From assembly GCA_035637355.1 (NCBI GenBank), contig DASPXJ010000003.1, positions 79-64,078 of the forward strand: a DNA stretch of 64,000 bases, in the 5' to 3' direction. The notes below the pieces were generated by a model. It was not told where the DNA came from, ran no database searches, and was given only the letters and a program-made list of their open reading frames with translations. Each line of letters opens with the position of its first letter. The stretch's first letter is position 1. Positions 15,230 through 33,527 of the stretch are shown here, one piece after another. The stretch comes from Gemmatimonadales bacterium (GTDB lineage Bacteria > Gemmatimonadota > Gemmatimonadetes > Gemmatimonadales > GWC2-71-9). A program made the position numbers and the translations under genes.

Positions 15230-16242
15230 ACATCGCGTTTTGTGTTGTCGCAGTCAGTACCGAACGTCTCGACAAATTCCTCGCCGACCAGCTCGCGCTT
15301 TCCCGAACCCAAGCCGGACGCCTCATCGCCGACAAGCGGGTACGCGCGCGTGGCAAAGCGCTGCGTGCGTCGGCCGTCCTCGCGCGCGGGCTCGAAGTCA
15401 CCGTCGAGCTGCCTCCCGACGCGCCGCCGCCCCGCACCTACACGCCCGCCCACGCCGACCTGCGCTTCGTCTACGAGGACGAGCATCTCGCCGTACTCGA
15501 CAAGCCGGCGGGCCTGGTCGTCCACCCGGGCCCCGGTCACTGGAACGACACCTTGGTGAACGTGCTGGTGGGGCGGGGGACCGAGCTGTCGGGCGGCGCG
15601 TCCGGGGAAGCGGGCCGTCCCGGGATCGTGCACCGGCTGGATCGTGATACCTCGGGGCTGCTCGTCGTCGCCAAGAGCGATCTGGCGCACCGCCGTCTCG
15701 CCGCCGCGATCGAGCGGCGCCAGGTGAAGCGCGTCTACGCGGCACTCGTGTGGGGCCATCTCCGCAAGAGTCCCGTCGACATCGAGGCGCCCATCGCCCG
15801 CCATCCCAGGGAGCGCAAACGCATGACGGTCGCTGACGGTGGCCGCCATGCGGTGACGCATGCCGCCCTCGTCGCGCGCTTCGCCCATGCCGACTTGTTG
15901 CGCGTGCGGTTGGGCACCGGCCGGACGCACCAGATTCGCGTGCACCTCGCGCACATCGGTTGTCCGATCGTCGGCGACCGCGAGTACACGTTCGGTGGCA
16001 GCCGGCGCGTGACGCCGTCGGCGCGGAACCAAGCCGAGCGGCTCGAGGCGCTGGCACCGCGCCAGTTGCTGCACGCCGCTGCGCTGTCGTTCGCGCATCC
16101 GGTGACCGGTGAGCCGCTCGCGCTGCGGTCGGAATGGCCCGACGATTTGCGTCCCGCGCTGGCGGAAGCGGCCGCCGATGCGAATTTGCTTGCCGAGCGC
16201 AACCCCTTGCAGTATCTTGGCTTCTTCGTATCCGATGAATGA
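15226..16242 (+). CDS. rluD: RluD/RluA-family 23S rRNA pseudouridine synthase
   Basis: S4 domain (ERLDKFLADQL) and catalytic HRLDRDTSGLLVVAK. TTG 15226 is the only in-frame start near the lspA stop. Confidence 0.8.
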   Translation: MNIAFCVVAVSTERLDKFLADQLALSRTQAGRLIADKRVRARGKALRASAVLARGLEVTVELPPDAPPPRTYTPAHADLRFVYEDEHLAVLDKPAGLVVHPGPGHWNDTLVNVLVGRGTELSGGASGEAGRPGIVHRLDRDTSGLLVVAKSDLAHRRLAAAIERRQVKRVYAALVWGHLRKSPVDIEAPIARHPRERKRMTVADGGRHAVTHAALVARFAHADLLRVRLGTGRTHQIRVHLAHIGCPIVGDREYTFGGSRRVTPSARNQAERLEALAPRQLLHAAALSFAHPVTGEPLALRSEWPDDLRPALAEAAADANLLAERNPLQYLGFFVSDE

Positions 16243-16783
16243 AGAAAGTCTCGGCCCCGGCCCCGGCCCCGGCCCCGCCCCCCCCGCACCGCCCGGCCGA
16301 TTGCTCGTGTTCCGTGTGGGAACACTGGCGTGCGCGGCCGAGGTGGATCAGGTGCGGGAGATACTCCCGCGGCTCCCAACGACGCGTATCCCGGGCGCGC
16401 CCCCGGTCGTGGCGGGGCTTGTGAATGTTCGCGGCACACTGGTGACGGTCGTGGAAGGGTGGCGTGCGCTGGGGCAGGTCCCGCCCTCCCCTCCGCCCGG
16501 TCCGGCCGCAGGTTCCCCGTCATCGACACCCGAGGCCGCTGCCGGGTCGACGATTATCCTCGAGGTGGGAAAGGGTGACGAGGACAACGGCGGCAAGAAG
16601 CTGATCGGCTTTATCGTTGACGAGGTGATGGACATGCTGGCGGGGACCGACACGACGTTGGAAGACCGCCAGAGTCTCCCGGGGATCGATCCCGTCCTGG
16701 TCCGCGCGGTGGGGCGGCGCAATGGTGAGCTGTTCATCGTATTGGACGTGCCGGCGCTGTTGGGCCCGGTTCTGACCACTTAA
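16235..16783 (+). CDS. cheW: CheW-like coupling protein with Gly/Pro-rich N-terminus and internal Pro-rich insert
   Basis: LLVFRVGTLACAAEVDQVREIL...VAGLVNVRGTLVTVV...IGFIVDEV CheW fold pattern. ATG 16235 overlaps the rluD end by 8 nt. Confidence 0.75.
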   Translation: MNEESLGPGPGPGPAPPAPPGRLLVFRVGTLACAAEVDQVREILPRLPTTRIPGAPPVVAGLVNVRGTLVTVVEGWRALGQVPPSPPPGPAAGSPSSTPEAAAGSTIILEVGKGDEDNGGKKLIGFIVDEVMDMLAGTDTTLEDRQSLPGIDPVLVRAVGRRNGELFIVLDVPALLGPVLTT

Positions 16784-16793
16784 GGAGCGAGCA

Positions 16794-17156
16794 GTGAGCC
16801 ACACGGTTCTCGTCTGTGACGACGCCATCTTCATGCGCACGATGATCACCGATATCCTGGCCCAGGCCGGATTCGAGGTCGTCGGCGAGGCGGAAACGGG
16901 TAGCCAGGCCGTCGAGAAGTACCGCCAGCTGAAACCGGATCTCGTCACGATGGACATCGTGATGCCCGACATGGGCGGCATCGATGCCGTCCGCGAAATC
17001 GTCAAGCAGGATCCCGACGCCAAGATCCTGATGTGCAGCGCCATGGGGCAGCAGGCGCTGGTCGTCGAGGCGATCCAGGCGGGCGCCAAGGACTTCGTCG
17101 TCAAACCCTTCCAGCCTTCCCGCGTTCTCGAAGCCGTCCAGCGCGTTCTGGGTTAG
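16794..17156 (+). CDS. cheY: CheY-like single-domain response regulator
   Basis: 120 aa. VLVCDDA, DLVTMDIVMPDMGG (phospho-Asp), KDFVVKPF. AAGGAG Shine-Dalgarno upstream. Confidence 0.9.
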   Translation: MSHTVLVCDDAIFMRTMITDILAQAGFEVVGEAETGSQAVEKYRQLKPDLVTMDIVMPDMGGIDAVREIVKQDPDAKILMCSAMGQQALVVEAIQAGAKDFVVKPFQPSRVLEAVQRVLG

Positions 17157-17158
17157 CG

Positions 17159-19090
17159 ATGGATCTGTCGCAGTACGCCGAGCTGTTCCTGGCCGAGAGC
17201 CGCGAGCACTTGAGCGCCTGCAATCAGCTGTTGCTCGAGTGGGAGCGTCATCCCGCCTCGCCCGAGCCAGTCGGCGGCATTTTCCGCGCGGTCCATACCA
17301 TCAAGGGCATGGCGGCGACGATGGGCTACGGCCGCGTGGCCGATCTCGCCCATCGCATGGAGAATCTGCTCGACCATTTGCGTCGCGGCGGCAAGTCGCC
17401 GGGCGAGGACACGCTCCAGCTCCTGTTCCGCGCCACCGACGCGCTCGAGAAAGCGGTCGGGCTCGCGGTCGCGGGGCGGGAACGGGAGCTGGATGTCGCG
17501 GCGATCCTCGCGGATTTGGATCGTGCAGGCGCTAAGGAGCCAACAGCAGCAGTTGCCGCCCCTTCGCCGCCCTCCGCCGCCGCTTCAATCGCCGCCCCAG
17601 TCGGATCCGGACGACTCATCAGCGTTCAGCTTCGGCCAGAGGCGCCGTTGAAGGGCGGCCGCGCCATGTTGATCGTCCGCAAGGTGCAAAGCCTGGGCGT
17701 CATTCAGCGGATGCAGCCGGCGGCCGCGGCATTCGAGTCCGACGACTTCGACGGCCACTTCGTGTTCGAGCTCGAGAGCGCCGCTGGCGCGCGGGACATC
17801 GAGGCGGCGATCCGTTCGATGGGAGACGTCGAGCGCGTGACGGTGGGCGACGAGGAGGAGCACGTCACGCCCGCCGAGAGTGTCGCCGCCGGGGGCGGTG
17901 GATCGGGGGGAGCGGGGGGGGCAGGGGCGGCGGGAGGGCGCGGCAGGCATATCCGCGTCGATCTGCGCCGGCTCGACACGCTCATGGACCTGATCGGCGA
18001 GCTGGTGACCGAGCGTGGCCGCTTGAACGAGCTGGCCGCGCGCTGGGTCGGCCAGGATCCGGCGATCGACGAGGTCGCGATTCAGATCTCGCGCCTCTCC
18101 GCCGATCTCCAAAACGAGATCATTCAGGCGCGCATGACGCCGGTGTGGCAGGTGTTCGACCGTTTTCCACGGCTGGTGCGCGACGTCGCGCGGCAGCTGG
18201 GGAAGCAGGTGGCGTTCCGCGTCGAAGGCAAAGAGATCGAGCTCGACCGGGAGATCCTCGACGAGCTGGGCGATCCGCTCGTGCACCTGCTGCGGAACGC
18301 CGTGGACCATGGCATCGAGCCGCCGGCCGAGCGCAAGCGCGCCAAGAAAAACGCGGAAGGCGAGATCGTCCTCACGGCGGTGCGCGAGCGCTCCAGCGTC
18401 GCGATCAGCATCGCGGACGACGGCCGCGGCATCGATCGCAGCCGCGTTCTGGCCAAAGCGAAGCGCGAAGGCATCGTTGGGCCGCACGTCGAGTCACTCT
18501 CGGACGATCAGCTGCTGCGCGTCCTGGCCCGGCCCGGTTTCTCGACGGCCGAAGCGGTGACCGCCGTGTCGGGGCGCGGCGTCGGGATCGATGTCGCGAT
18601 GACGCGTATCCGCGCGCTCGGCGGCTCGATCGAGATCCGCACCGAGCCGGGGAAGGGGACGACGTTCGTGTTGCGGCTCCCGGTGACGCTGGCGATCGTC
18701 CGTGCCTTGATCGCGGCCGTCGGGTTGGAGCGCTACGCGCTGCCGTTGACCTATGTGGCCGAGACCGTCGAGCTGGGCACGACGCCGATGACCAAGATGG
18801 AAGGGCGCGAGGCGATGGTGCTGCGCGATCGCGTCGTGCCACTCGTTGACCTGCGTCAGCTGCTCGGGACAAACGGCGGCTCGCCGCCGCCGCCCCCCCG
18901 CCGTCCTGTGATTGTGCTCGAGATGGGGGAACGGCGGGCCGGGATCATCGTGGACGGGATGCTGAGCCAGCAGGAAATCGTCGTGAAGGGGTTCGATGCG
19001 CCGCAGGGCACGCTGCCGGTGTTTAGTGGCGCCACGATCATGGGCGATGGCGTGCCGGCGCTGATTCTCGATGCCGCCGGACTCGTGTAG
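17159..19090 (+). CDS. cheA: chemotaxis histidine kinase CheA
   Basis: Hpt site FRAVHTIKGMAATMG, dimerisation region HIRVDLRRLDTLMDLIGELV, HATPase (HLLRNAVDHGIE, DDGRGID, GRGVGID), C-terminal CheW-like domain. Start ATG 17159. Confidence 0.9.
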   Translation: MDLSQYAELFLAESREHLSACNQLLLEWERHPASPEPVGGIFRAVHTIKGMAATMGYGRVADLAHRMENLLDHLRRGGKSPGEDTLQLLFRATDALEKAVGLAVAGRERELDVAAILADLDRAGAKEPTAAVAAPSPPSAAASIAAPVGSGRLISVQLRPEAPLKGGRAMLIVRKVQSLGVIQRMQPAAAAFESDDFDGHFVFELESAAGARDIEAAIRSMGDVERVTVGDEEEHVTPAESVAAGGGGSGGAGGAGAAGGRGRHIRVDLRRLDTLMDLIGELVTERGRLNELAARWVGQDPAIDEVAIQISRLSADLQNEIIQARMTPVWQVFDRFPRLVRDVARQLGKQVAFRVEGKEIELDREILDELGDPLVHLLRNAVDHGIEPPAERKRAKKNAEGEIVLTAVRERSSVAISIADDGRGIDRSRVLAKAKREGIVGPHVESLSDDQLLRVLARPGFSTAEAVTAVSGRGVGIDVAMTRIRALGGSIEIRTEPGKGTTFVLRLPVTLAIVRALIAAVGLERYALPLTYVAETVELGTTPMTKMEGREAMVLRDRVVPLVDLRQLLGTNGGSPPPPPRRPVIVLEMGERRAGIIVDGMLSQQEIVVKGFDAPQGTLPVFSGATIMGDGVPALILDAAGLV

Positions 19091-19101: not shown

Positions 19102-19722
19102 GTGATGGAAGACGTCCGTGATCTCAAAGCGCTGCAGCTCGATGCGCTGAAAGAGGTCGCCAACATCGGCGCGGGCCACGCGGCGACGGCGCTGTCGCAG
19201 CTGACCCACCGTCGCATCATGATCTCGGTGCCCGAGATCAACATCGCGCGGCTCGAGGAAGTGCCCGGGCTGATCGGCGATCCGCAGGAGGTCGTCGCCG
19301 CGGTGCTGATGCACATGCTCGGCGACCTGACGGGGCGGACGCTGCTGCTCTTTCCCGAGCCGGTCGGCCGGCAGCTCTGCGACATGCTGCTCAAGCGCCC
19401 CCTCGGCACGACCCAAACCTTCGAGACGATCGAGCAGTCGTGCCTCAAGGAGGCGGGGAACATCCTCTCGGGCGCGTACATGAACGCGCTGTCGGAGTTC
19501 ATGGGAATGCTGCTGTTGCCGTCGGTGCCCAGCCTCGTGGTGGACCTCTCGGCCGCCGTCCTCACGACCACGTATCTGAACTTCGGGCACGACCGGGACT
19601 TCGTGTTTTGCGTCGAGACGGAGTTCAACATCGATGCTCGGGACGGGCTGCGCGGCCATTTCCTGCTCCTGCCCGATCTGGCGTCTCTCAAAGCGATCTT
19701 CGACGCCATCCGCCTCACCTAA
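19102..19722 (+). CDS. cheC: CheC-type CheY-P phosphatase
   Basis: Two E-x2-N active-site motifs (ALKEVANIGAG and CLKEAGNILSG). 206 aa. Confidence 0.8.
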   Translation: MMEDVRDLKALQLDALKEVANIGAGHAATALSQLTHRRIMISVPEINIARLEEVPGLIGDPQEVVAAVLMHMLGDLTGRTLLLFPEPVGRQLCDMLLKRPLGTTQTFETIEQSCLKEAGNILSGAYMNALSEFMGMLLLPSVPSLVVDLSAAVLTTTYLNFGHDRDFVFCVETEFNIDARDGLRGHFLLLPDLASLKAIFDAIRLT

Positions 19723-19725: not shown

Positions 19726-22434
19726 GTGACTGTCCCGGCGGTCTCAGAGCGCGATCTCGCCGTTCTTCGCTCTTTCGCCCGCCGGATCGATCCGTCGGAC
19801 GCCGGGGCGCATAACAACCTCGGCGTTCTCTATTACCAGAAGGGCCTCGTCCCCGAGGCCATCGAGCAGTTCACGCGGGCGCTGGAGCTCGACCCGCGCA
19901 TGCAGGTCGCGCAGCGCAATCTCGAAATCGCGTATCACAACACCGGCTTCTACGACCGGCGCGTCAACGAGCTCCAGGAGCGGCTGCGCCAGGCGCCCGA
20001 CGAGCGTGACGCGCGCTGGGAGCTGGGCCGCACGTACGCGATTCTCGGGGCGCACGAAGAAGCGGTCGCCGAATTCGAGGAGCTGCTGGCGCACAAGTCG
20101 AAGGACGTGGCGTCGATCATTCAGCTCGGGCTCGCCGAGAAATCGCGCGGCCGGCTGGAAATCGCGACCGAATGGTTTCTGCGGGCGGTCGAGGAAGACC
20201 CCGATTCGTCCGTCGTCCACTTCTATCTCGGCGAGGTCTACTACAATCGTGGCTTGAACGAGCCGGCGCTCACCGCGCTGGAGCGCGCGGTGTCGCTCAA
20301 TCCCGACAACGCGAACGCCCATTACCTGATGGCGTTCGTGCTGGGCGACATGGGTCGGCATCAGGACGCGCGCGCCGCGTCGAAGCGCGCGATTCAGCTC
20401 AATCCGCCGCTGGCGCGCGCGCAGACGAATCTCTCGCTGGAACGCTACCGCGCCGAGCGGCAGTCGGCCGAGCAGCGGTTGCGCGAGCAGCCCGCGCCGG
20501 AGGTGGCCGAGGGCAGCGAGCTGGCGCACTACAACCTGGGGCTCGCGTTCCGCCAGCGGGGCTATTACGCGGAGGCGTTGCGCGAGTATCGGCTCGCGAT
20601 CGAGCGCGGCGAGGACCGCCGGCTGGTGCGCCAGGCGATGGCGGAGGTCTACCTCCTGAAGCGGGACTTCACGGACGCCCTCGAGCTGTACGAGTCGCTG
20701 ATCCACGAGGTCCCGGACTCCCCCAAGCTGTGGAACGAGCGCGGCGTCGTCTTGCATCAGGCGGGCCGCCCCGCCGAGGCGTTGACGTCCTACCGGCAGG
20801 CGACGGAGGTCGATCCGCGCTACGCGCTGGCCTGGAACAACGTGGGCGTGGTGCTCGCGCACCAGAGCGACACCGAGGCAGCGATCGAGGCTTTTCGCAA
20901 GGCGTTACAGCTCAGCTCCGTCTTCGTGGGGGCGAGGCTCAATCTGGCATTGCTGCTGACGCATCTGCGCCGCTTCCAGCTGGCCCTCGAAGCCTATCGC
21001 CAGGTGCTCGCCGACCAGCCGGCCTCGGCGCCCGCCTGGAACGGCGTCGGGCTGGTGCTGGTGGAGCTGAAGCGGTTCACCGATGCGCGCAACGCCTTCG
21101 TCCGGGCGGTCGAGGCGGATCCGCACAACGCCGGCGCGCACTACAACCTGAGCTTCACGCTCTCGAATCTCGGGGATTACGACGGCGCGTTGCGCGCCAC
21201 CAAGCGCGCCCTCGAGCTCGATCCCTACTACGTCTCGCAGAAGTTCGCGCTCGCGATCGACCTGCAGTACGAAACGGTGTCGATCGGCATCGTGCCGGAG
21301 ATCTCGGCCGACGTCACCGCCGAGAACCTCGGTGCCGAGTTTGCGTTCGACCAGCGGCTGCTCGACAACATTTTCCAGGAGCTCGAGCCGGCGGCGACGG
21401 CAGCGCAGCCGGCGCCTGCGGGGCTCGCCAAGAAACCCGACGATCCCCTCGCGCTGGCGCGCGACTACGTGAGCAAGGGGATGATGGACCTCGCGGTCGC
21501 CGAAGCGATGCGCGCCGTGCAGCGCGGCGCCGACCGCGGCCAGGCGGCGACGCTGCTGGGCGACATCTACGCGCGGCGCGGGCTGCACGGCGAGGCACTC
21601 GAGCGCTACCGCGAAGCGCGCACGCTGGACGCGGCGAATGCCGGCGCGGCGTTGGGCGAAGTGAAGAGCCTGCTGGCGATGCATCGCTCGGCCGAGGCCC
21701 TGCCGTTGGCCGAGGAGCGCGCCGCCAAGGCGCCGGAAGACGTGGAGGTGCTGGTCGCGGCCGCCAAGGCGCGCGCCGCCACGGGCGATGCGGCGGGCGC
21801 GCTTACCGCGCTGCGGCAGGCGCAAACGCGCGCGCCGGACCGCGCCGACCTCCACAAGCTCCAGGGCGACATCGCCCTCAAGGTCGGGGACCGTCAGGGC
21901 GCGCGGGCGGCGTACCGGTCCGCGCTCGATCTCGACGAGGGCTTCGTCCAGGTCTGGCTCGACCTCGGGCGGCTGCACGAGCAGGACGAAGCATGGCCCG
22001 ACGCGCAGCACGCGTACGAAGCGGCGCTCGACGCCCTCCCCACGTTCCACGAGGCGTCACTGGCGCTCGCCGATCTGCTGCGCCGCTCGGGCAGCGTGCA
22101 CGCGGCCGTGGTGCGGCTGGCGGATATGCTGGAGCAGGATCCCTACGACATGGATGCGCTCCTGCTGCTCGGACGGACGCTGCTCGACGACAAGCGCAAC
22201 GCCGAGGCGCTCGAAGCCTTCCGGCGCGCCCTCAAGTTCGATATCGAGCATACCGGCGCGCTGTTCTACCTCGGCGCGACGCTCGCGCGGCTGCAGCGCT
22301 ACGGCGAGGCGGTCGACGCGTGGGAGCGCGTGACGCGCATCGATCCGGGCGGGCCGTTCGCGCAGCGCGCGCGCCTGCATGCGCGCACCGCGGTCGACCT
22401 GCAACACATCTTCTCCACCTCGGACGCGGCGTAA
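19726..22434 (+). CDS. large tetratricopeptide-repeat protein (902 aa)
   Basis: Repeated A-x3-Y/F...A...L.L.P TPR signatures along the whole length (e.g. AHNNLGVLYYQKGLVPEAIEQFTRALELDP). 3-nt gap after cheC. Confidence 0.75.
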   Translation: MTVPAVSERDLAVLRSFARRIDPSDAGAHNNLGVLYYQKGLVPEAIEQFTRALELDPRMQVAQRNLEIAYHNTGFYDRRVNELQERLRQAPDERDARWELGRTYAILGAHEEAVAEFEELLAHKSKDVASIIQLGLAEKSRGRLEIATEWFLRAVEEDPDSSVVHFYLGEVYYNRGLNEPALTALERAVSLNPDNANAHYLMAFVLGDMGRHQDARAASKRAIQLNPPLARAQTNLSLERYRAERQSAEQRLREQPAPEVAEGSELAHYNLGLAFRQRGYYAEALREYRLAIERGEDRRLVRQAMAEVYLLKRDFTDALELYESLIHEVPDSPKLWNERGVVLHQAGRPAEALTSYRQATEVDPRYALAWNNVGVVLAHQSDTEAAIEAFRKALQLSSVFVGARLNLALLLTHLRRFQLALEAYRQVLADQPASAPAWNGVGLVLVELKRFTDARNAFVRAVEADPHNAGAHYNLSFTLSNLGDYDGALRATKRALELDPYYVSQKFALAIDLQYETVSIGIVPEISADVTAENLGAEFAFDQRLLDNIFQELEPAATAAQPAPAGLAKKPDDPLALARDYVSKGMMDLAVAEAMRAVQRGADRGQAATLLGDIYARRGLHGEALERYREARTLDAANAGAALGEVKSLLAMHRSAEALPLAEERAAKAPEDVEVLVAAAKARAATGDAAGALTALRQAQTRAPDRADLHKLQGDIALKVGDRQGARAAYRSALDLDEGFVQVWLDLGRLHEQDEAWPDAQHAYEAALDALPTFHEASLALADLLRRSGSVHAAVVRLADMLEQDPYDMDALLLLGRTLLDDKRNAEALEAFRRALKFDIEHTGALFYLGATLARLQRYGEAVDAWERVTRIDPGGPFAQRARLHARTAVDLQHIFSTSDAA

Positions 22435-24756: not shown

Positions 24757-25229
24757 GCCCGCAGACCCGCGCCGTCGAAAGCTGGACGCTGCAACCGCTC
24801 ACCGACTTCGTGCGCGAATCCTCCGTGCGTCTTGTACTGGTACTGACCCCTTCAGGACAGGTGCTGGCGCAGTCCGGGTTCTCGCGCGCCGTCGACGTGA
24901 TGTCCGCAGCAGCGCTCGCCGCGGCGATCGTCGCCTCCACGGGAGAGCTGGCGCGGCAGCTGCGGCAGCCGCCCTTTGCGGCGCTCAGTCATCAGGGTCC
25001 CAAGAACGGGTTCTTTCTGGCCACGCTCACGGCCGACCGCGGGACGCTGGCGGTGCTCGCCGTCTACGATCTCGATGTTTCATCGCTTGGCCTGGTGCAG
25101 TTATTCTATGAGCAACTTGCGGCGGACTTGAAGACGGCGAGCCCAAAGGGCGCAGTCCCGAAGCAGGTGCTGGCCGCGGACTTCGAGCGCGAGCTGACGG
25201 ACAGCCTCAACACGCTGTTTGGGAGATAG
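24753..25229 (+). CDS. mglB: MglB-like Roadblock/LC7 GTPase-activating protein
   Basis: 158 aa, directly upstream of mglA as in the Myxococcus mglBA operon. VRLVLVLTPSGQVLAQSG...VSSLGLVQLFYEQLAADL and the C-terminal LNTLFGR tail resemble, as far as I recall it, MglB (SLGLVRLRIKKASDEL...DNLFSE). Confidence 0.7.
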   Translation: MSPQTRAVESWTLQPLTDFVRESSVRLVLVLTPSGQVLAQSGFSRAVDVMSAAALAAAIVASTGELARQLRQPPFAALSHQGPKNGFFLATLTADRGTLAVLAVYDLDVSSLGLVQLFYEQLAADLKTASPKGAVPKQVLAADFERELTDSLNTLFGR

Positions 25230-25232: not shown

Positions 25233-25835
25233 GTGTCCCTGGTCAACTTCACGAGCCGCGAGATCACGTGCAAAATCGTCTACTACGGGCCGGGACGGTC
25301 CGGAAAGACGACGAATCTCCATTACGTGTATGGGCGCGTGCCCGAGACGCGGCGCGGCCGCATGGTCTCGCTGGCCACGCAGACCGACCGCACGCTGTTC
25401 TTCGACTTCCTGCCGATCGATCTGGGGCAAATCTCCGGCTTTTCGACCCGCTTCCAGCTCTACACGGTGCCCGGCCAGGTTTACTACGATGCCACCCGGC
25501 GGCTCGTACTCCAGGGCGCGGATGGCGTCGTGTTCGTCGGCGACAGCCAGGCGCGGCAGCTGGATGAAAACATCGAAAGCCTGCAGAACCTGCAGAGCAA
25601 TCTCCTGGAGCACGGCGTCGATGTGCGCACCATGCCCCTGGTGATGCAGTACAACAAACAGGATCTGCCGCGGGAGCTGATCCTCACGCAGGCCGAGCTG
25701 GACGACGCGCTCAACTTCCGCAGCGTGCCGAGTTTTGCGGCCGACGCGCTGCACGGCAGAGGCGTGTTCGAGACGCTGAAGGCGATTTCGGAACTGGTCC
25801 TGAAGAAACTCGCGGCCGGGAGCCCGGCGGCATGA
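25233..25835 (+). CDS. mglA: MglA-family Ras-like small GTPase
   Basis: [22 protein letters not shown] (P-loop), [11 protein letters not shown] (switch I with intrinsic Arg), [14 protein letters not shown] (switch II Gln), QYNKQDLP (G4). Near-collinear with M. xanthus MglA as recalled. GTG start. Confidence 0.9.
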
Positions 25836-27790
25836 CCAGCACGCTCAACCCCCGCTTCACCTTCGACACGTTCGTCGTGGGCGCCGCCAACCGTCTGGCC
25901 GTCACCGCCGGGCGGACCGTGGCCGAGAATCCCGGCTCGGCCTACAACCCGCTCTTCATTTATAGTGGCTCCGGACTGGGCAAGACCCACGTGCTCATGG
26001 CCGTCGGTCACGCGGCCAAGGCGCTCGCGACCCAGCTCAACATCGAGTACCTCACGCTCGACGAGTACGTGGAGGCATTCCACGCCGCCATCGCCGCCGG
26101 TCAGGGCGATGCGTTCCGGCGTCGCTTCCAGAACGTGGACGTGCTGCTGGTCGACGACGTCCAGTTCCTGACGAATCGCAAGGAGATGCAGGCCGAGTTG
26201 CTGCGTCTGACGGAGGCGCTGCAGCAGGCGGGGCATCAGATCGTGCTCGCGAGCGACCGGCCGCCGGCCGAGATCGCGGACCTGGACGAGCGGCTGATCT
26301 CCCGCTTCTCGGGCGGGCTGGTCGTCGACATGGGGGTTCCCGATTACGAGACGCGCGTCGCGATTCTGCGGCGCAAGGCGGACGAGCGCGGGACGTCGTT
26401 CCAGCCCGGCGTGCTCGAGACGGTCGCGAAGATCGACTACCCCAACGTGCGCGAGCTCATGGGGGCGCTGAATCGCCTCATCGCCTTCCAGGCCGTGAAT
26501 GACACGCCGATCAATGAAGAAGCCGCGCGAAAAGTGCTCGGCGTTCCGACCGCTGCCTCATCGACCGCCGCCTCATCTACCGCCGCCGCACCTACCGTGG
26601 CCTCATCAGATGAGTTCTCCCAGTTCTTAACGGACGTCACGGTTACCGTCGGTAAAGCGGTCGAGGCGTGGCGCGCGCGCGTGGCGGAGGCGGTGATCCG
26701 GTGGGAGGGGGAAGGCTACCGCACCGGCAGGCTGGAGAAGCTGCTCGACCAGGAAACGCCGGCCGCCGTCGACGAAGCGATCGCCGCCTACGTGCAGGAT
26801 GTGGAGCGGCTCAAGACGCTCGAGGCGGAAGTCGCCGTGCTCGATCCGCAGGCGGCGGGCGAAAAGGCGTTTCGCGATCCCGATCACATGGACGAAGCCG
26901 AAGCTGCCGCGGCGAAGGTGCGGGACGGCGCGGCGCCGCCGCCCGCGCCCTCCGCCGCCTTCCCGCTCGAGACCTACATCGGGGGGTCGTCCAACGAGGT
27001 CGCGCTCAGCGCCGCCCGCGACGCGATCGCCAAGCCGGGGAAGAAATACAACCCTGTCGTCATCGTCGGCCCGAGCGGCCTCGGCAAGACCCACCTGCTC
27101 AACGCCATCGGCCTCGAGCTCGCCCGGAAGAAAAACGCGATCGTCGCCTGCCTCTCCACGCAGCAATTCGTCGACGAGTTGATCGCCGCGATCGACGGCA
27201 ATCGCGTCGACTGGTGGCGCGCCCGTTATCGCCGCGCCACGGCGCTGTTGCTCGACGACATCCAGCTCCTGGCCGGCAAGGATCGGACACAGGAAGAGCT
27301 GTTCAATCTCTTTAACCAATGCATCGACGCGGACCACCAGCTCGTGTTCACCGCGCCCGCCCACCCCAACCGGCTCGAGGGCCTGGAAGAGCGCATCGTC
27401 TCGCGGCTCGAGGGGGGGCTCGTCGTCGAGATTGGCGAGCCCGACAAGGATCTCCGTCGCGGCGTGCTGGAGCGGCTGCTCAGGAATCAGCGCGTGGTGG
27501 TGGAGCCTGCGCTGCTCGATTATCTGGTGGACCGGCCCGCCGATTCGGTACGCAGCCTGACGGGGATGGTGCAGCGGGTGGTGGAAGCGGCGGCGGCGCA
27601 GGACGCGCCCGTGACCGCCGGTCTCGCGCGCGACGTGCTGGAGGGCGCCCCTCCACCCGGAACCCGGCGCACGACCGGGCTGCGCACCAGCGGCATCGTC
27701 GTCTCCAGCGCCGGCGGCGTGCGCAGCCGCGAAAAGATGGTGTGGGACTGGCCCTCGTCCGCTGACCGCGTGATCGAGGATCTCCGCTAA
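25832..27790 (+). CDS. tandem double DnaA-type AAA+ (domain III) protein lacking DnaA domains I/II and IV
   Basis: Module 1: [76 protein letters not shown]. Module 2: [71 protein letters not shown] overlap with the mglA stop. Confidence 0.85.
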
Positions 27791-29406
27791 TGGCGATCAA
27801 AGGCTCGCTCAAGGAAGCGTCGCTTCCCGACGTGCTGCAGCTGCTCGCGTTGGGCCAGAAGACGGGCTGCCTGTCGATCGCCGACCGTTCCAACTTCGGC
27901 TACATCTATTTCGACAAGGGCCGCATCGCCTACGCGTCGATCGTCAACCGCCGCGACCGCCTGGGCGACATCCTCGTCAAGCACGAAAAGATCACCCAGG
28001 AGCAGCTCGACACCGCGATTCATCGCCAGGCCAAGGAACGCGACAAGAAGCTGGGCGAGATCCTCGTCAACCAGACGGTGATCTCGCAGCAGGAGCTCGA
28101 GCGCTACATGCGCATGCAGATCGAGGAGTCGGTCTACTACCTGTTCACGTGGACGCAGGGGACGTTCAACTTCGAGGCCGACGTCCGGCCGGAGCAGCAG
28201 GACTTCCTCGTCTCGATCAACCCCGAGTCGCTGCTGCTCGAGGGCGCCCGCCGCGTGGACGAGTGGGGCCTGATCGAAAAAAAGATCCCGTCGTTCGATC
28301 TCATCTTCCTCGTCGATCGCGACCGCCTCGCCATCAGCGATGCGAAGCTCACCGAGGTGCAGGAGCGGCTGCTGCCGCTGCTCGACGGCTCGCGCGACGT
28401 GAACCAGGTGATCGAAGACTCCGGGATGGGCGAGTTCGAGGTGGGCAAGGCGCTGTACGGGCTCGTCACGGCGGGGTTCCTGCATCGCGCGGGGCGCACC
28501 GCCAGCGCCGAAGACGTGAAGATGACCGACGCGCGCGTCGAGGAGCACCGCAATCTCGGCATCGCCTTCTACAAGACGGGCATGCTCGACGAGGCCGCGC
28601 GCGAGTTCCGCCGGGTTGCGGAGCTGCGGGGCAGCGACGCCAACGCGCACTTCTTCATCGGGCTCGTCGCGCTCAAGCAGGCGCGCTGGCGCGAGGCGAT
28701 GGAAGCGCTGCGCCTCGCGGCCGAGAAGGGCGGCTCGCGGCCCGCCGTGCTGCACAATCTCGGGTTGGCGTACGAACAGCTCGGCCGGCTGGAGGACGCG
28801 GAGGCGGCGTATTCCGAGGCGGCGACGCGCGCGCGCACCGACCCGCGCGTGTACGTGGGGTGGGGCGTCGTGGCCCTGAAGCAGGGCGACCTGGCGAGCG
28901 CGGCCGGCCGGCTCGACCGGGCGAAAGAGCTCTTTGCCGAGAAGATTCCGCCGATCTGGTTCTGGGCGCGCTCCCTCGCCGCCGCCGCCGCCGGGGATTT
29001 CGAGACCGCGGAGCAGGTGGCCGTGCAGGCCGTCGCGGCCCATCCCCAGAACGGCGTGCTGCGCAACAACCTTGCCGTGCTGCACGAGCTCGCCGGTGAG
29101 CTGCCCGAGGCGGAAGACCTGGCGCGCGCCGCCTTGCAGGACGAGCCGTCGCTGCCGCAGCTCTCCAAGAACCTCGGCGATCTCGCCTACCGCGGCTCCC
29201 GCTACGACGAAGCGTGGGGCCTGTATCAGCGCGTCATCGAGCTGTCCCCGGAGCTGGGCGACGACGTGTACTTCAAGCTCGGCAACATCGCCTACAAGCG
29301 GAACGACCGGGAGCAGGCGAGCGCGCTGTGGCATCGCGCCCTCGAGCTGAATCCGAAGCACGAACTGGTGAAAGCGAATCTGGACACCTTGAGCACGTTG
29401 TCGTGA
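27790..29406 (+). CDS. PATAN/DUF4388 domain - TPR protein (paralog 2)
   Basis: GSLKEASLPDVLQLLALGQKTGCLSIADRSNFGYIYFDKGRIAYA followed by a shared LLLEGARRVDEW block and a long TPR region. TAATG junction upstream. Confidence 0.7.
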   Translation: MAIKGSLKEASLPDVLQLLALGQKTGCLSIADRSNFGYIYFDKGRIAYASIVNRRDRLGDILVKHEKITQEQLDTAIHRQAKERDKKLGEILVNQTVISQQELERYMRMQIEESVYYLFTWTQGTFNFEADVRPEQQDFLVSINPESLLLEGARRVDEWGLIEKKIPSFDLIFLVDRDRLAISDAKLTEVQERLLPLLDGSRDVNQVIEDSGMGEFEVGKALYGLVTAGFLHRAGRTASAEDVKMTDARVEEHRNLGIAFYKTGMLDEAAREFRRVAELRGSDANAHFFIGLVALKQARWREAMEALRLAAEKGGSRPAVLHNLGLAYEQLGRLEDAEAAYSEAATRARTDPRVYVGWGVVALKQGDLASAAGRLDRAKELFAEKIPPIWFWARSLAAAAAGDFETAEQVAVQAVAAHPQNGVLRNNLAVLHELAGELPEAEDLARAALQDEPSLPQLSKNLGDLAYRGSRYDEAWGLYQRVIELSPELGDDVYFKLGNIAYKRNDREQASALWHRALELNPKHELVKANLDTLSTLS

Positions 29407-30185
29407 GCAAAGCTCCTCCGGAGCGAGCGTTCGATGCGTTGACCGAGAAGATCTCGCGTGAGCGGGGAGTGAGCTGCGGATCGTACAAAGACAAGTGCTT
29501 GAAGCGCCGCATCGCGGTCCGCATGCGCGCCCGCGGCGTCCACTCCTACGAAGACTACGCCACGGTGCTCGATCAGGATGCGCACGAGTATCAGGAGCTG
29601 CTCGACGCGCTGACGATCAACGTCACCAAGTTCTTCCGCAACCCCGAAACATGGACGGCGCTCCGTCCCTACCTCGAGCGACTGGCACAGCAGCGATCGA
29701 GCCTGCGAATCTGGTCGGCCGGATGCTCCTCCGGTGAGGAGCCCTACACGATCGCGGTCCTGCTGGCCGAGATCGGGGCGGGCGGATTCATCGATGCAAC
29801 CGACGTCGATCGCCTGAGCCTCGAACGGACGCGGCAGGCGAAGTATCCCGACACAGCGTTCAGTGAGATGCCGGTGACGTTGCGGCGCCGCTATTTTCAG
29901 GACGGCCAGCCCACGGCCCCGGTGCGCGAGCTGGTGCAGGTGCGCGCCCACGATCTGACCCGGCACCCACCTCCGCGCCCACCGTACGATCTCATCGCGT
30001 GCCGCAACGTGGTCATCTACTTCGAGCGAGCGGCGCAGGAGCGGCTGTTTCAGGTGTTCGTGGACGCGCTGGCGCCGGGCGGCGTGCTGTTGCTCGGCAA
30101 GGTCGAGACGCTGTTCGGCCCCGCGCGGAACAAACTGGCGCTCGAGGACCCGCGCGAGCGGATCTACACGAAGCCTCCGTCGTGA
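29403..30185 (+). CDS. cheR: chemotaxis protein methyltransferase CheR
   Basis: TKFFRNPETW, IWSAGCSSGEEPYTIA (SAM site), IACRNVVIYF. GTG 29403 overlaps the upstream stop (GTGA). Confidence 0.85.
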   Translation: MSKAPPERAFDALTEKISRERGVSCGSYKDKCLKRRIAVRMRARGVHSYEDYATVLDQDAHEYQELLDALTINVTKFFRNPETWTALRPYLERLAQQRSSLRIWSAGCSSGEEPYTIAVLLAEIGAGGFIDATDVDRLSLERTRQAKYPDTAFSEMPVTLRRRYFQDGQPTAPVRELVQVRAHDLTRHPPPRPPYDLIACRNVVIYFERAAQERLFQVFVDALAPGGVLLLGKVETLFGPARNKLALEDPRERIYTKPPS

Positions 30186-30664
30186 AGGAAGTTATCGTCA
30201 AAGTCGCCGACTGGGCGGCCGAGCGCGGGGATGGCGTGCTGATCACCCTCGGGCTCGGTTCCTGCGTCGCGATCATGCTGCACGATCCGCAGACGAAAGC
30301 CGGCGCGATGGCCCACGTCCTCCTGCCCTCGATCAGCCTGGCGCGCGACATCACCAACCGAGCCAAGTTTCCCGAGACCGCCGTGCCGTTGCTGGTCGAG
30401 CGTCTCAAGGCCCTGGGCGCCGATCCGCGGCGCCTGGTCGCCAAGCTCGCCGGCGGTGCCAGCATGTTCAGCCAGCTCGTCACACCCGGCACGATCCAGA
30501 TGGGCGAGCGCAACCTTCTGGCGTCGCGCAGTGCGCTGCGCGCGGCGCAGATCCCCATCATTCGGGAAGCGGTGGGCGGTGAGCGCGGCCGCAGCGTGCG
30601 CTTTCACGTCACCGACGGGCGCGTGGAAATCCGCTCCGTGGGGGAGCATGCCGACGTCATCTGA
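30182..30664 (+). CDS. cheD: chemoreceptor glutamine deamidase CheD
   Basis: [30 protein letters not shown] motifs. GTGA overlap with cheR. Confidence 0.85.
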
Positions 30665-31775
30665 CGCGCGGCCGACGGTCGTCGTGGCCGATGACAGCGC
30701 CCTGATGCGGCGCGTGCTCGTCGACGTCCTGGGCGGCGGCGATGCGGACAACGGCGCGTTCCGCGTGGTGGCCACGGCGCGCGATGGATTCGACGCCATC
30801 CGCAAAATCCACCAGCACAAGCCCGACGTCGTGACGCTCGATCTCGAGATGCCGCAGCTCGACGGCCTGGGCGCGATCGGCTACATCATGTCGGAATCGC
30901 CGCTCCCCATCGTCGTCGTCAGTGCGCACGCGGGGCCGGGCACCGCCACCGCGATCCGCGCGCTCGAGCTGGGCGCCGTCGAGATCGTCGCCAAGCCGCC
31001 CCCGCCACCCGATGGGTTCGGCCATCCGCGCGCCGCGCTCGCCGCGCTGGCGCCGCAGCTCATCGCCGCGGTGCGGCGCGCGCTCGCCGCGGACGTGTCG
31101 CACGTCAAAGTCCTGGCGCGGCCGCCGGCACCCGTCGTCCACCCTCCGGAGCTGGCACTGCGGGGCCGCGCGGCGCTCGCCGTGGGCGTGGCTGCGTCGA
31201 CCGGCGGGCCACGCGCCCTGACCGATCTCGTGCCGCGTCTCCCGACCGGCCACGGTGCGGCAGTGCTCATCGTGCAGCACATGCCGCCGAAGTTCACGCG
31301 CAGTCTCGCAGAACGGCTCGACTCGATAAGCCGGTTGCGTGTCGTCGAAGCGGACGACGGCGCACCGGTCGTCGCCGATACGGCGTACGTGGCGCCGGGC
31401 GATTATCATATGCGGGTGCGTTTCGCCCTCGACGGTCCCGTGATCGCGCTCGATCAATCCGCGCCGATCCACGGCGTCCGCCCCGCGGCCGATCCGTTGT
31501 TCCGCTCCATCGCCGAGGTGTATGGCGCACGCGGCGTCGGCGTCGTGCTGACGGGGATGGGGCGCGACGGCGCCGACGGGCTGCGCGCCATGCATGATGC
31601 GGGCGCGACCGGCGTCGCGCAGGATCGCGAGTCGGCGGTCATCGCCGGCATGCCGGTCGCCGCGGTGCAGGCGGGCGGGGTCGATGCCGTCCTGCCGCTC
31701 GGCCAGATCGCCGATTGCGTCGCGGCCGAGCTGGCACGAAGAGGGGGAGGGGGAGGGGGGGGCTCCAAGGAATGA
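30648..31775 (+). CDS. cheB: chemotaxis response regulator protein-glutamate methylesterase CheB
   Basis: REC domain ([26 protein letters not shown]) plus esterase domain ([30 protein letters not shown]). ATG 30648. Confidence 0.85.
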
Positions 31776-32194
31776 AGGGCTATCTGCTGGTGCGCGCCGA
31801 AGGAAAAGCGTACGGCTTCCCGGTCAATCGGGTGCTGGAGGTCGGCGATGCCACCGAAGTGCTCAGTATTCCGCGCAAGCTCCCGGCAATACGCGGCCTG
31901 ACGCCGTTGCGCGGCCGGCTCGTCCCCCTGATCCACCTCGGTGCGTTTCTCGCCGGCGGGGAAGCTCCCGCGGCGGCGCCCAGCGGTGCGCGCACCATCG
32001 TGCTGGTCGAGCTCGGCGCCGGCGGACGACATGTGGCGTTCGAGGTGGATGACGTGGATTCCGTCGTCCGCGAGCAGCCGCTGCCCGTTCCCCGCGGGCA
32101 CACGCTGCCTTGGGCGGCGGGTGTCGCGGAGCAGGAGGGCGGACACCTGGTGCCGATCCTCGACCTGGACGCCCTCGGAGACCGCATCGGATGA
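31772..32194 (+). CDS. cheW: CheW-like coupling protein
   Basis: 140 aa. [20 protein letters not shown]...[17 protein letters not shown]...[12 protein letters not shown] overlap with cheB. Confidence 0.7.
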
Positions 32195-32661
32195 CGACGA
32201 CCGGGACCACGGGTGACGACGTCCAACTGGTCACCTTCAAGGTCGGCGGCCAGGACTTTGCGTTCAACATTTTTCAGGTGGAGCGCATCCTCCGGTATGA
32301 AGCGCCCGCGCCGCTGCCCAAAGCGCCCGAGTTCCTCGAAGGCGTGCTGCAGTATCAGGGCGGCGCCGTCCCGCTCGTCGATCTGCGCAAGCGTCTCGGC
32401 ACGCCGGCGCCGCTGCGGGAAGACACGCGCACCGTCATCCTCGAATTCGAGGGCGGCAAGATCGGCGTCATCGTCGATGCCGTGACCGAGGTGATGCAGG
32501 TGGCGGCACAGGCGGTGACGCCGCCGCCGGGAATCGTGAAGGGGCTGGCCGCGGAATACATCGCGGGCCTGGTCGTGCAAAACGGCCGCACGATCGTCGT
32601 GTTGAATACGAACAAGCTGCTCAATTCGAAGGAGAAACTGGCCTTGCAGGAAGTGTCATGA
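32191..32661 (+). CDS. cheW: CheW-like coupling protein
   Basis: 156 aa. LVTFKVGGQDFAFNIFQVERIL...LEGVLQYQGGAVPLVDL...IGVIVDAVTEV. ATGA overlap upstream. Confidence 0.8.
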   Translation: MTTTGTTGDDVQLVTFKVGGQDFAFNIFQVERILRYEAPAPLPKAPEFLEGVLQYQGGAVPLVDLRKRLGTPAPLREDTRTVILEFEGGKIGVIVDAVTEVMQVAAQAVTPPPGIVKGLAAEYIAGLVVQNGRTIVVLNTNKLLNSKEKLALQEVS

Positions 32662-33527
32662 CGGAGTCGCCGGTCGCCGCGTTGCGTCGCGAATACGATA
32701 TCATCGCGCGCCAGCTCGAGGGTGGGGGCCCGCCGGGAAACGCCGAGCGCGAAGCCGCCAAGCGCGAGATCATCGCGTTTTTCAAGAAGATCGACGGGAT
32801 GCTGGGCGAGATGACGCAGCTCAAAGACGACATCCGCCAGCTCGTCGATCGCTACAAGCAGATCGCCGCAGACACGAAACAGGCGGGCGCGCCCGAGTTC
32901 ACCGGCCAGCGGCCCGTGCTGCACGCCGATCACATCGGCGCGACCACGTTCATCGAAAAAGGCTGGAGCCTCATCTCCCTGGGCGACCATGCCGGCGCGA
33001 TTCAGGCGCTCACCAAGGCGCTGCAGCTCTCGCCGGGCGAGACGCAGGCCGAGTCGCTGCTCGGCTGGGCGCAGATGCTGCACGAGGATTACGACGACGC
33101 GCTCGGCACCTTTCAAAAAGTGCTGATGAAAGAGCCGGCGAACTCGCTGGCGCGCATCAACGTCGGCTACATCTGCCTGAAGAAGCGGATTTTCGGCGAG
33201 GCGATCGAGCACCTGTCGAAGGCGATCCGGCTCGACAACGACAAGAAGGCGACGCTGTACGCGCACTTCTATCTGGGGCTCGTCTACCTGCAGCGCGAGA
33301 TGTTCGAGGATGCGGAGACGTTCTTCCAGAAGACACTCAAGCTCGGCCCGAATCTGATCGAAGCCTATTACGAGCTGGGCCGCGCGCACTGGTTCGCGGG
33401 CGATCAAGCGAAGGCGAAATCCACCTGGGACGAGGGCTTCAAGGCGAACAAGTTCAATCCCTGGGGCAAGCGGTGCCAGGAGATGCTGGACCTCGTCGCC
33501 AAGGGCGAGGAGCCGCCGCGAGACTAG
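32658..33527 (+). CDS. TPR-repeat protein, terminal gene of the che/mgl operon
   Basis: 289 aa. Coiled-coil-like N-terminus then TPR repeats (GDHAGAIQALTKALQLSP, YDDALGTFQKVLMKEP, FGEAIEHLSKAIRLD). ATGA overlap with cheW. Confidence 0.7.
   Translation: MTESPVAALRREYDIIARQLEGGGPPGNAEREAAKREIIAFFKKIDGMLGEMTQLKDDIRQLVDRYKQIAADTKQAGAPEFTGQRPVLHADHIGATTFIEKGWSLISLGDHAGAIQALTKALQLSPGETQAESLLGWAQMLHEDYDDALGTFQKVLMKEPANSLARINVGYICLKKRIFGEAIEHLSKAIRLDNDKKATLYAHFYLGLVYLQREMFEDAETFFQKTLKLGPNLIEAYYELGRAHWFAGDQAKAKSTWDEGFKANKFNPWGKRCQEMLDLVAKGEEPPRD

Follow-up and report, generated by a model that had tools for sequence, protein, structure and literature searches.

The stretch of DNA analysed here, hereafter the window, comprises 64,000 nucleotides (nt) of a Gemmatimonadales bacterium (assembly GCA_035637355.1, contig DASPXJ010000003.1), with a G+C content of about 68% throughout and nearly every gene on the + strand. 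Gene annotation and Pfam matches show that positions 16235-33527 hold an unbroken chain of 18 co-directional + strand genes (an earlier note on this DNA counted 19, but its own list also gives 18), in which the genes of a chemosensory (Che) system are split around a nested group of other genes. The order is cheW1-cheY-cheA-cheC, followed by genes for a 902-amino acid TPR protein, the PATAN-domain protein PATAN1, a TPR-Roadblock fusion, a stand-alone Roadblock protein, MglB, the Ras-like GTPase MglA, a tandem DnaA-like AAA+ ATPase which we call dDnaA, and a second PATAN protein (PATAN2), after which come cheR-cheD-cheB-cheW2-cheW3 and a gene for a 289-amino acid TPR protein. The domain calls of the earlier note (MglA, MglB, Roadblock, PATAN, double DnaA-AAA+ and Che) all hold in comparisons with Pfam, PDB and hhalign. 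What it described is genuine but was over-read, and it missed both the MshEN-type motifs in the two PATAN proteins and the pairing of dDnaA with a PATAN-TPR protein as the evolutionary core. As judged from comparison of related genomes, the invariant core of the block is dDnaA plus PATAN2, rather than MglA/MglB: every one of the 40 fetched Gemmatimonadota loci that cover both positions has the pair, as do two more that were found via PATAN2.

The genes are packed very closely. At all 17 junctions in the block the genes either overlap or lie no more than 11 nt apart, the widest gap being the 11 nt between cheA and cheC, and the nine ATGA, GTGA or TAATG overlaps that had been named (at 24409, 24753, 25832, 27790, 29403, 30182, 31772, 32191 and 32658) are exact; additional overlaps are found at 23567 (-8) and 30648 (-17). 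Upstream of the block the packing is equally tight (divIVA/pnp -4, pnp/ileS +3, ileS/dksA-like -1, dksA-like/lspA -17, lspA/rluD -4 and rluD/cheW1 -8), tight packing being a general trait of the region from 0.4 to 33.5 kb. Because the overlaps run on into rluD, lspA and ileS, spacing does not fix the 5' limit of an operon at 16235. Downstream of 33527 the packing ends, with gaps of 47 nt to a Peptidase_MA_2 gene, then 329 nt from there to a TPR gene and 195 nt from that gene to rsmH of the dcw cluster, which begins at 36691. The 3' limit of the block is clearer than the 5' limit; the tight chain up to 33527 proposed by the earlier note is real, but it does not define the start of an operon at cheW1. 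A scan of 15000-34900 for consensus promoters and terminators gave nothing above shuffled expectation, and neither sets nor excludes operon boundaries.

Proteins encoded in the block

The protein dDnaA (652 amino acids, 25832..27790) consists of two AAA+ modules of the DnaA domain III type, with two Bac_DnaA matches in Pfam (339 bits) and PDB entry 8bv3 as a structural homolog (E 1e-58). An AlphaFold2 model (pLDDT 85.8) shows the two AAA+ modules with their lids, a four-helix linker (residues 262-366), two disordered stretches and a C-terminal helix. When this model was used in Foldseek, it gave a TM-score of 0.94 to domain III of Bacillus subtilis DnaA, the other matches being DnaA proteins and double-ring AAA+ proteins (p97) only; the search gave no information on the linker domain. 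In 28 relatives with 33-57% sequence identity, the Walker A lysines, the Walker B aspartates and the box VII and sensor II arginines are conserved in both modules, as are a linker signature and a C-terminal EKMVWxWP motif which is followed by a helix. Module 1 is about 45-50% identical to domain III of true DnaA proteins.

Whereas both AAA+ modules correspond to DnaA domain III by sequence and fold, dDnaA differs from DnaA and Hda by its tandem duplication, by the family-specific helical linker and C-terminal motif, and by being always paired with a PATAN-TPR gene. It is not a DnaA protein: there is no Bac_DnaA_C match, the PDB alignments cover domain III only, and domains I and IV are lacking. 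The score with TIGR00362 exceeds the cut-off only because the two modules add up. Assignment as Hda was likewise rejected in view of the tandem modules, the N-terminus MTSTLNPRF, which lacks a QL[SP]LPL-type clamp motif, and a TIGR03420 score of 182 bits, below the 194.8 required. Source databases nevertheless name dDnaA relatives 'DnaA/Hda family protein' or 'chromosomal replication initiator protein DnaA' despite the missing domains I and IV, which makes the DnaA label an annotation trap for replication-origin hunting in metagenome-assembled genomes of Gemmatimonadota. With dDnaA as the query, over 7,800 database homologues were retrieved at E <= 1e-10, with ordinary DnaA proteins among them.

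The partner protein PATAN2 (538 amino acids, 27790..29406), whose gene always comes directly 3' of dDnaA, contains a PATAN domain (DUF4388, 136.8 bits), a tandem MshEN-type motif at residues 57-110, a winged-helix-like region and about nine TPRs. PATAN1 (378 amino acids, 22438..23574) is composed of a PATAN domain (111.6 bits), an MshEN-type insert at residues 59-113 and C-terminal TPRs. Both match PF14332 including its internal helical insertion, with a cut-off of 25 bits, which was the definition of a PATAN domain used here. The NCBIfam model NF053729 ('cyclic di-GMP-binding domain, MshE-related', cut-off 38) recognizes PATAN2 with 53.5 bits and PATAN1 with 40.8 bits, and residues 54-110 of PATAN2 align with the MshEN/GSPII regions of PilF, PilB and Vibrio cholerae MshE (5htl). 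The motif is defined as a tandem of the 24-residue sequence RLGxxLVxxGxIxxxxLxxAIxxQ (PMC5013675); the criterion applied here was its more general form RLGxxhhxxGhhxxxxLxxxLxxQ with a score above the curated cut-off. In PATAN2 of the window, E or T replaces the G at position 10 in each half-motif, and PATAN1 has a 7-residue spacer. The motif is kept in PATAN2 orthologues, including those from lineages that harbor only the dDnaA-PATAN2 pair (see below), and its second half-site has decayed in the three loci of a Gemmatimonas type (L030, L033 and L034). PATAN1 and PATAN2 are predicted to be receptors of cyclic di-GMP (c-di-GMP), which would extend the MshEN c-di-GMP motif to PATAN-TPR proteins. 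In a structural model of PATAN2 obtained from database homologues the PATAN core is of low confidence (pLDDT <50 at residues 1-55 and 113-149), and a Foldseek search with this model retrieved generic TPR proteins only. Neither protein is a PatA-type regulator, as both run into TPRs and not into a receiver (REC) domain.

The GTPase MglA (200 amino acids, 25233..25835) aligns over residues 1-197 with Myxococcus xanthus MglA (5ymx, E 1.4e-74, 57% identity) and is also matched by MglA from Thermus thermophilus (3t12, E 3.8e-68). It possesses a P-loop, the intrinsic-arginine region TDRTLFFDF and the G3 motif TVPGQ, and is of the group 1 type as described by Wuichet & Sogaard-Andersen 2014, in which the G3 motif is TxxGQ (Thr replaces the usual Asp) and switch I carries an intrinsic arginine. 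The segments LYTVPGQ and TDRTLFFDF line up with the M. xanthus residues and are both kept in orthologues except at three loci (L023, L025 and L029). By these alignments, the identity of MglA is unambiguous. At the three exceptional loci, the MglA homologue (about positions 9394-9999) is only 37-47% identical and has a degenerate P-loop, switch I arginine region and G3 glycine, with GIPAE, AVPPQ or AIPDQ at the position of TVPGQ; in view of these motifs it may be a pseudo-GTPase.

The mglB gene (158 amino acids, 24753..25229) ends 3 nt before mglA and encodes a Roadblock-fold protein (Robl_LC7, 29 bits with a cut-off of 23; PDB 6h5b/6izw, E 1.3e-8), which resembles M. xanthus MglB, the GTPase-activating protein (GAP) of MglA, the most. 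As the score with the NCBIfam MglB equivalog model is 33 bits against a cut-off of 200 bits, the protein is a homologue and a putative equivalent of MglB. The stand-alone Roadblock/LC7 protein (115 amino acids, 24409..24756) has 39 bits with Robl_LC7 and matches PDB entry 7f8m (E 2.8e-6). In the TPR-Roadblock fusion (281 amino acids, 23567..24412), N-terminal repeats belonging to Pfam TPR families precede a C-terminal Roadblock/LC7 domain. The Pfam score of this domain is low (21 bits), but hhalign assigns it to the Roadblock family with 96.3% probability (E 1.5e-9).

The Che proteins encoded in the block include CheA, CheW, CheY, CheR and CheB. The 5' part starts with the CheW-like scaffold CheW1 (182 amino acids, 16235..16783; CheW, 80 bits), which has Pro/Gly-rich insertions and whose coding sequence shares its first 8 nt with the end of rluD. 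It is followed by CheY (120 amino acids, 16794..17156; Response_reg, 109 bits), a single-domain response regulator of which the closest solved homolog is Thermotoga maritima CheY (1tmy, 67% identity, E 1.6e-51). According to Pfam, CheA (643 amino acids, 17159..19090) consists of the five domains Hpt, P2, dimerisation, HATPase and CheW-like, without a receiver; its best NCBIfam model is the haloarchaeal CheA_Halo (445 bits, against 329 for the E. coli-type model), both scores being under the equivalog cut-offs. CheC (206 amino acids, 19102..19722; CheC, 78.6 bits) belongs to the CheY-P phosphatase family, with T. maritima CheC as the closest solved structure (1xkr, E 1.3e-29). The 3' part encodes the methyltransferase CheR without a fused TPR domain (260 amino acids, 29403..30185; CheR 150 bits and CheR_N), a receptor deamidase family protein CheD (160 amino acids, 30182..30664; CheD, 94 bits), CheB with a receiver and a methylesterase domain (375 amino acids, 30648..31775; CheB_methylest 212 bits and Response_reg), CheW2 (140 amino acids, 31772..32194; 68 bits) and CheW3 (156 amino acids, 32191..32661; 117.5 bits). 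With CheC, CheD, a receiver-free five-domain CheA and a Thermotoga-like CheY, the set looks F1-like (flagellar/archaellar type) in the classification of Wuichet & Zhulin 2010, as judged from the accessory proteins, the CheA architecture and the closest homologs.

Two further TPR proteins are encoded in the block. The 902-amino acid protein (19726..22434) is an all-TPR scaffold, as seen from Pfam TPR families and orthologue N-termini, and has no signal peptide. A peptide LSERD(L/R)xVLRSFARRID, located before the first TPR (19726-19790 in the window), is conserved in orthologues from L004 to L045. We considered this N-terminus (LSERDLAVLRSF) as a mimic of the CheY-binding peptide of FliM/CheZ (LSQxEIDALL), but the likeness is loose and at most a tentative lead; since many orthologues have Arg where the hydrophobic key residue should be, it may be fortuitous. 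The 289-amino acid protein (32658..33527) begins with about 90 residues that form no TPRs, continues with TPRs (Pfam TPR families) and, by synteny and junctions, is encoded by the last tightly coupled gene. It has a median identity of 68% and is retained in variants without the adaptation genes.

Conservation and variants of the block in Gemmatimonadota

To find relatives, one genome per GTDB species was scanned with an alignment of seven dDnaA sequences, and gene order was established by tblastn with the proteins of the window. The scan yielded at least 45 loci, every one of which belongs to Gemmatimonadota (Gemmatimonadales, Gemmatimonadaceae, Gemmatimonas and Longimicrobiales); among the matches listed, those below these 45 are ordinary DnaA genes of other phyla, which does not prove absence of dDnaA outside Gemmatimonadota. 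About 25 long loci, which belong to Gemmatimonadales, Gemmatimonadaceae and Gemmatimonas and extend down to a dDnaA identity of 43-50%, have the full order from cheW to the 289-amino acid TPR gene, followed by the Peptidase_MA gene, a TPR gene and rsmH. The linkage on which the earlier note had staked its reading is thus conserved, also in loci this distant. The segment from the TPR-Roadblock gene to dDnaA is also present on a 4.5 kb Longimicrobiales contig (L039).

The individual junctions are conserved as well. An overlap of 8 nt connects PATAN1 and the TPR-Roadblock gene in 24 of 26 loci, and the Roadblock/mglB junction is -4 or -1 in all 33 loci. The distance between mglA and dDnaA is at most 11 nt (39 of 39), dDnaA/PATAN2 is -1 in 34 of 40, and overlaps of 4 nt join PATAN2 to cheR (22/26) and cheR to cheD (23/25). 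Unlike these, the flanking junctions are real gaps, with a median of +62 between the 289-amino acid TPR gene and the Peptidase_MA gene. Chance does not explain that gene order and individual overlap types are kept in 25-40 independent loci at such deep divergence.

The most conserved protein of the block is CheY, with a median identity of 88% in distant loci, followed by MglA with 79%; the medians of the other proteins are 41-68%, for example 52% for CheA, 49% for MglB and 49% for dDnaA. CheY identities range from 87-97% in full-form and Gemmatimonas-type loci and from 76-83% in the reduced variants, with CheA at 45-55%. The C-terminal face of CheY (KDFVVKPFQPSRVLEAVQRVLG) is nearly invariant among orthologues, which suggests several constrained binding partners.

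The composition of the block varies by whole groups of genes. Most Gemmatimonadales loci harbor the full form. Among 26 loci with enough upstream sequence, cheY-cheA-cheC and mglA are both present in 25 and both missing in one, with no locus having only one of them; neither is found in L040, L081 and L082 as well. A variant without the adaptation genes (L023, L025, L029 and probably L027) lacks cheR, cheD, cheB and the two 3' cheW genes, and retains a truncated cheW, cheY, a cheA without P2, cheC, a shorter TPR protein and PATAN1, together with the Roadblock genes, mglB, mglA, dDnaA, PATAN2 and the 289-amino acid TPR gene. Since the signalling half stays with the nested genes when the adaptation set is lost, CheA/CheY would be tied to the nested genes and not to the adaptation enzymes. 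The Gemmatimonas-type variant (L030, L033 and L034) possesses the cluster without the Roadblock genes, mglB and cheR. In the core-only variant (L040, L042, L081 and L082) the order is yggS-divIVA-pnp-ileS-(lspA)-rluD-dDnaA-PATAN2-Peptidase_MA, with no che or mgl genes; these loci represent a large clade that includes sequences named Longimicrobiales. Taken by gene content, the variants show a layering, with dDnaA and PATAN2 as the oldest part, to which was added a 'switch set' (cheW, cheY, cheA, cheC, the large TPR scaffold, PATAN1, three Roadblock-domain proteins including MglB, MglA and the terminal TPR protein) and, in most lineages, also an 'adaptation set' (cheR, cheD, cheB and two cheW genes).

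The cultured relative Gemmatimonas phototrophica AP64 possesses a cluster extending from GEMMAAP_RS07755 through at least RS07805, according to the gene table in the supplement of PMC9862903. Four annotated genes (cheW RS07755, cheY RS07760, DUF4388 RS07780 and CheB RS07805) and their spacing match the Gemmatimonas type. The organism has a single polar flagellum, as do Gemmatimonas species (PMC9862903). Genes for MCPs (methyl-accepting chemotaxis proteins) are located elsewhere in its genome, and PilT and GspE-family ATPases are present (PMC9862903 and supplement). A second CheA (RS15835) was reported to be induced by calcium amendment, which also up-regulated flagellar biosynthesis genes (PMC9862903).

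The genes bordering the block are conserved neighbours that we place outside the machine. Upstream, Pfam and the junction table show yggS, divIVA, pnp, ileS, a dksA/traR-like gene, lspA and rluD (9154..16242, + strand). The run from yggS to rluD, with the dksA/traR-like zinc-finger gene, also precedes dDnaA-PATAN2 in L042, L081 and L082, which are free of che and mgl genes. In a close relative (L002, 85% identity) the rluD match lies on the strand opposite to cheW1, which reflects either an inversion of this small region or a fault of the assembly; a genuine inversion would mean that transcription of the che block does not depend on rluD. Downstream, translations, Pfam and gaps define a Peptidase_MA_2 membrane protein and a 598-amino acid TPR protein (33575..36495, + strand), both with hydrophobic, signal-peptide-like N-termini as judged by eye from the translations. 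Their genes stand between the block and the dcw cluster, with real gaps to the block, and the Peptidase_MA gene is also found 3' of dDnaA-PATAN2 in the core-only clade. Further upstream (5926-9127) the same co-directional array contains a gene for a DisA_N-type diadenylate cyclase (c-di-AMP synthesis) and one for a homologue of TMEM260-like protein O-mannosyltransferases. On the 4.46-Mb Gemmatimonadota contig L081, of the core-only type, a gas-vesicle cluster (GvpA, GvpF/L, GvpG and GvpK, 14738-20570) is located a few kb 3' of dDnaA-PATAN2.

Possible functions of the block

The earlier note proposed a machine in which the output of CheA/CheY is wired to a Ras-like switch. We tentatively favour a related reading, to which we give a little less than an even chance: the products of the block would form one hub in the cytoplasm, where CheA/CheY as well as c-di-GMP act on an assembly of MglA, MglB-Roadblock and TPR proteins and thereby set the activity of a polar machine. 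CheA would be controlled by receptors that are encoded elsewhere, and CheY-P, reset by CheC, would act on the MglA/MglB-Roadblock-TPR/PATAN assembly. In Myxococcus the regulators FrzX and FrzZ act on the MglA/MglB/MglC/RomR module, which provides a precedent for such a step. The action of CheY-P might bias the nucleotide state of MglA or its pole of residence. A second input would be c-di-GMP, through the MshEN-type inserts of PATAN1 and PATAN2, and the AAA+ ATPase dDnaA may assemble or remodel the scaffold. The output would be pole-specific activity of a polar machine, with type IVa pili as the best guess because PATAN proteins bind PilB/PilC in cyanobacteria and MglA together with a TPR effector acts on pili in Myxococcus; a polar flagellum or polar growth are alternatives. 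We favour this hub because che genes and mglA are present or absent together, because the signalling half is kept without the adaptation enzymes, and because of the links between PATAN and PilB and between MglA, TPR proteins and pili.

Several observations speak against the hub. The earlier note called the chemosensory pathway complete, which is an overstatement because there is no receptor gene nearby: tblastn with the signalling domain of Tsr (E 1e-3) gave no match to an MCP signalling domain in the window or in the 80 fetched loci. We infer the wiring of CheA/CheY output to the MglA GTPase from gene linkage and co-occurrence only. Moreover, the catalytic motifs of MglA are degenerate in the variants without adaptation genes, and the Gemmatimonas-type loci have neither Roadblock genes nor mglB. 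In G. phototrophica, a stand-alone pair of an mglB-like Roadblock gene and mglA (RS06360 and RS06365; NZ_CP011454, 1536477-1537655) occurs outside the cluster (PMC9862903 supplement). The block encodes no RomR, RomX, FrzZ-like or PATAN-REC protein. The F1-like Che set and the polar flagellum of cultured Gemmatimonas mean that CheY may simply go to FliM. Finally, judging by gene order, the whole region is a syntenic core-genome stretch, in which rluD and the dcw cluster are conserved too.

The main rival, and a serious one even though we regard it as rather unlikely, is that the Che proteins form an ordinary F1 flagellar pathway, with CheY-P going to the flagellar switch, and that the products of the nested genes serve to place or partition either the chemosensory array or the single polar flagellum, if not the two together. 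The resemblance of CheY to the T. maritima protein, the presence of CheC, CheD and a five-domain CheA, and the single polar flagellum of Gemmatimonas would agree with this, and che operons are known to harbor NTPase positioning genes (ParC/ParP and PpfA, see below). Among the three CheW paralogues there could be a ParP-like tether, and the occurrence of the dDnaA-PATAN2 pair without che genes implies that it has a Che-independent function of its own. However, the block encodes no ParA-like ATPase and no ParP-like protein, and the CheA of G. phototrophica that is up with the flagellar genes under calcium amendment is the other one. In addition, the signalling half and the nested genes stay together where cheR, cheB and cheD are lost, and mglA never occurs here without cheA/cheY, which a general polarity factor would not need. 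If the nested genes did position the array or the flagellum, they would represent a new kind of ParA-free positioning system.

Improbable in our view is a role in the cell cycle, in which dDnaA-PATAN2 would regulate replication initiation or the identity of poles or division sites, for example by co-oligomerising with DnaA via DnaA-type arginine fingers, with the chemosensory, MglA and c-di-GMP inputs attached in Gemmatimonadales. The similarity of module 1 to domain III of true DnaA and the intact Walker A, Walker B, box VII and sensor II residues of both modules are consistent with such a role, as is the persistence of the pair where che and mgl genes are absent. The pair also always follows yggS-divIVA-pnp-ileS-(lspA)-rluD and adjoins the dcw cluster in Gemmatimonadales, but these housekeeping neighbours may be plain synteny and the dcw cluster is not adjacent in the core-only clade. 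Furthermore, dDnaA lacks domain I, the DNA-binding domain IV and an Hda-type clamp motif.

The weakest explanation, and the one we consider least probable, is that the che, mgl/Roadblock and AAA+/PATAN functions are unrelated and merely share a vertically inherited, little-rearranged region: unrelated neighbours (rluD, the Peptidase_MA gene and rsmH) do keep their position across the same loci and the tight packing is shared by the whole 0.4-33.5 kb stretch, but entire modules are lost or kept as units while the flanks do not move, che and mglA obey an all-or-none rule, the split of the che genes around the nested genes is kept with exact overlaps at 43-50% identity, and associations of PATAN with MglA/MglB and with che-like systems are independently documented.

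Returning to the hub, its interest is that the link from a chemosensory pathway to a Ras-like polarity GTPase is understood only in Myxococcus, where the components are scattered and the connecting steps are hard to find. The block would be a candidate for a full parts list, with a kinase, CheY, a phosphatase, a GTPase, a GAP, two more Roadblock proteins, TPR scaffolds, two predicted c-di-GMP receptors and an ATPase. A natural 'deletion series' is provided by those variants that lack the adaptation genes or the Roadblock genes, or that have the core pair only; together with at least one cultured species which carries a variant of the cluster, it makes the wiring of sensing to polarity testable, in a major but poorly studied lineage of soil bacteria. 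A bolder proposal, which we hold to be a long shot, is that dDnaA and a c-di-GMP-sensing PATAN-TPR protein form an unrecognised pole or cell-cycle machine that defines Gemmatimonadota, into which a chemosensory phosphorelay and a Ras-like switch were plugged in Gemmatimonadales. If this were true, the decision on pole identity, and perhaps also on replication, division or budding, would be shared by chemical sensing, a second messenger and GTPase polarity, beyond the steering of motility.

Comparison with known systems

In the literature searched, which covered a Geobacter che genomics paper, a survey of CheW domains, Guzzo et al. 2015 and the topics Gemmatimonadota, MglA, CheA, PATAN and polarity, neither a che operon that contains mglA nor this Gemmatimonadota cluster nor a tandem DnaA-like family was found to be described. 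The earlier note likewise knew of no characterised system with such a composition. The frequent proximity of PATAN genes to mglA/mglB, which the earlier note mentioned, was noted before by Makarova et al. 2006, as cited in PMC4316618 (see also bioRxiv 10.1101/2021.06.11.447907).

Similar to the block described here, the cyanobacterial Tax/Pix/Pil operons encode a PATAN protein inside a che-type operon. Their PatA-type PATAN-REC regulators bind PilB and PilC in Synechocystis (bioRxiv 10.1101/2021.06.11.447907). In the block, PATAN is fused to TPRs and CheY is separate, whereas the cyanobacterial operons possess their own MCP and lack MglA/MglB and an AAA+ protein.

A positioning gene nested in a che operon is known from Rhodobacter (PpfA). 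In Vibrio and Pseudomonas, the NTPase positioning genes ParC/ParP are nested in che operons and co-inherited with them (PMC5706961). The likeness to the block is an NTPase-based spatial organiser between che genes, but these systems use ParA/MinD-type ATPases with a CheW-like tether, unlike the Ras-like GTPase and DnaA-type AAA+ protein found here. Assignment of the block as a ParC/ParP or PpfA system was rejected, as Pfam detects no CbiA, ParA or AAA_31 domain in any of the 18 proteins.

Archaeal F1-type CheY is coupled via lineage-specific adaptors to a motor other than the bacterial flagellum. The rewiring of such a Che system to the archaellum proceeds through CheF (PMC2666748); those adaptors are unrelated to the proteins of the block and no GTPase is involved. 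The actinobacterial conservons (CvnA-D) combine a histidine kinase, a Roadblock protein and an MglA-family GTPase, the proposed output, in one operon (PMC4316618). They differ from the block by having a membrane sensor kinase instead of CheA and a group 2 MglA, and they lack Che, PATAN and AAA+ proteins.

The closest parallel in logic is the Frz system of M. xanthus with its MglA/MglB/MglC/RomR-RomX module, where a phosphorelay switches a Ras-like polarity GTPase. Both systems have a CheA-type kinase with a single-domain receiver as output, a group 1 MglA, an MglB GAP with extra Roadblock paralogues, and large TPR partners (by analogy with SgmX). The block is not a Frz-type system, as there is no CheA-receiver fusion (FrzE), cytoplasmic receptor FrzCD, dual-receiver FrzZ or CheR-TPR fusion (FrzF). 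In Myxococcus, as in Bdellovibrio, mglA lies apart from the genes that encode its partners in signalling (PMC4316618), in agreement with the earlier note, whereas here all parts are combined in a single coupled block with F1-like Che proteins, PATAN-TPR proteins carrying MshEN motifs and a tandem DnaA-like ATPase. A Ras-like polarity module that is controlled or organised by a chemosensory system is thus a known kind of arrangement, and to this kind the block adds one component family, the tandem DnaA-like proteins, which appears to be undescribed.

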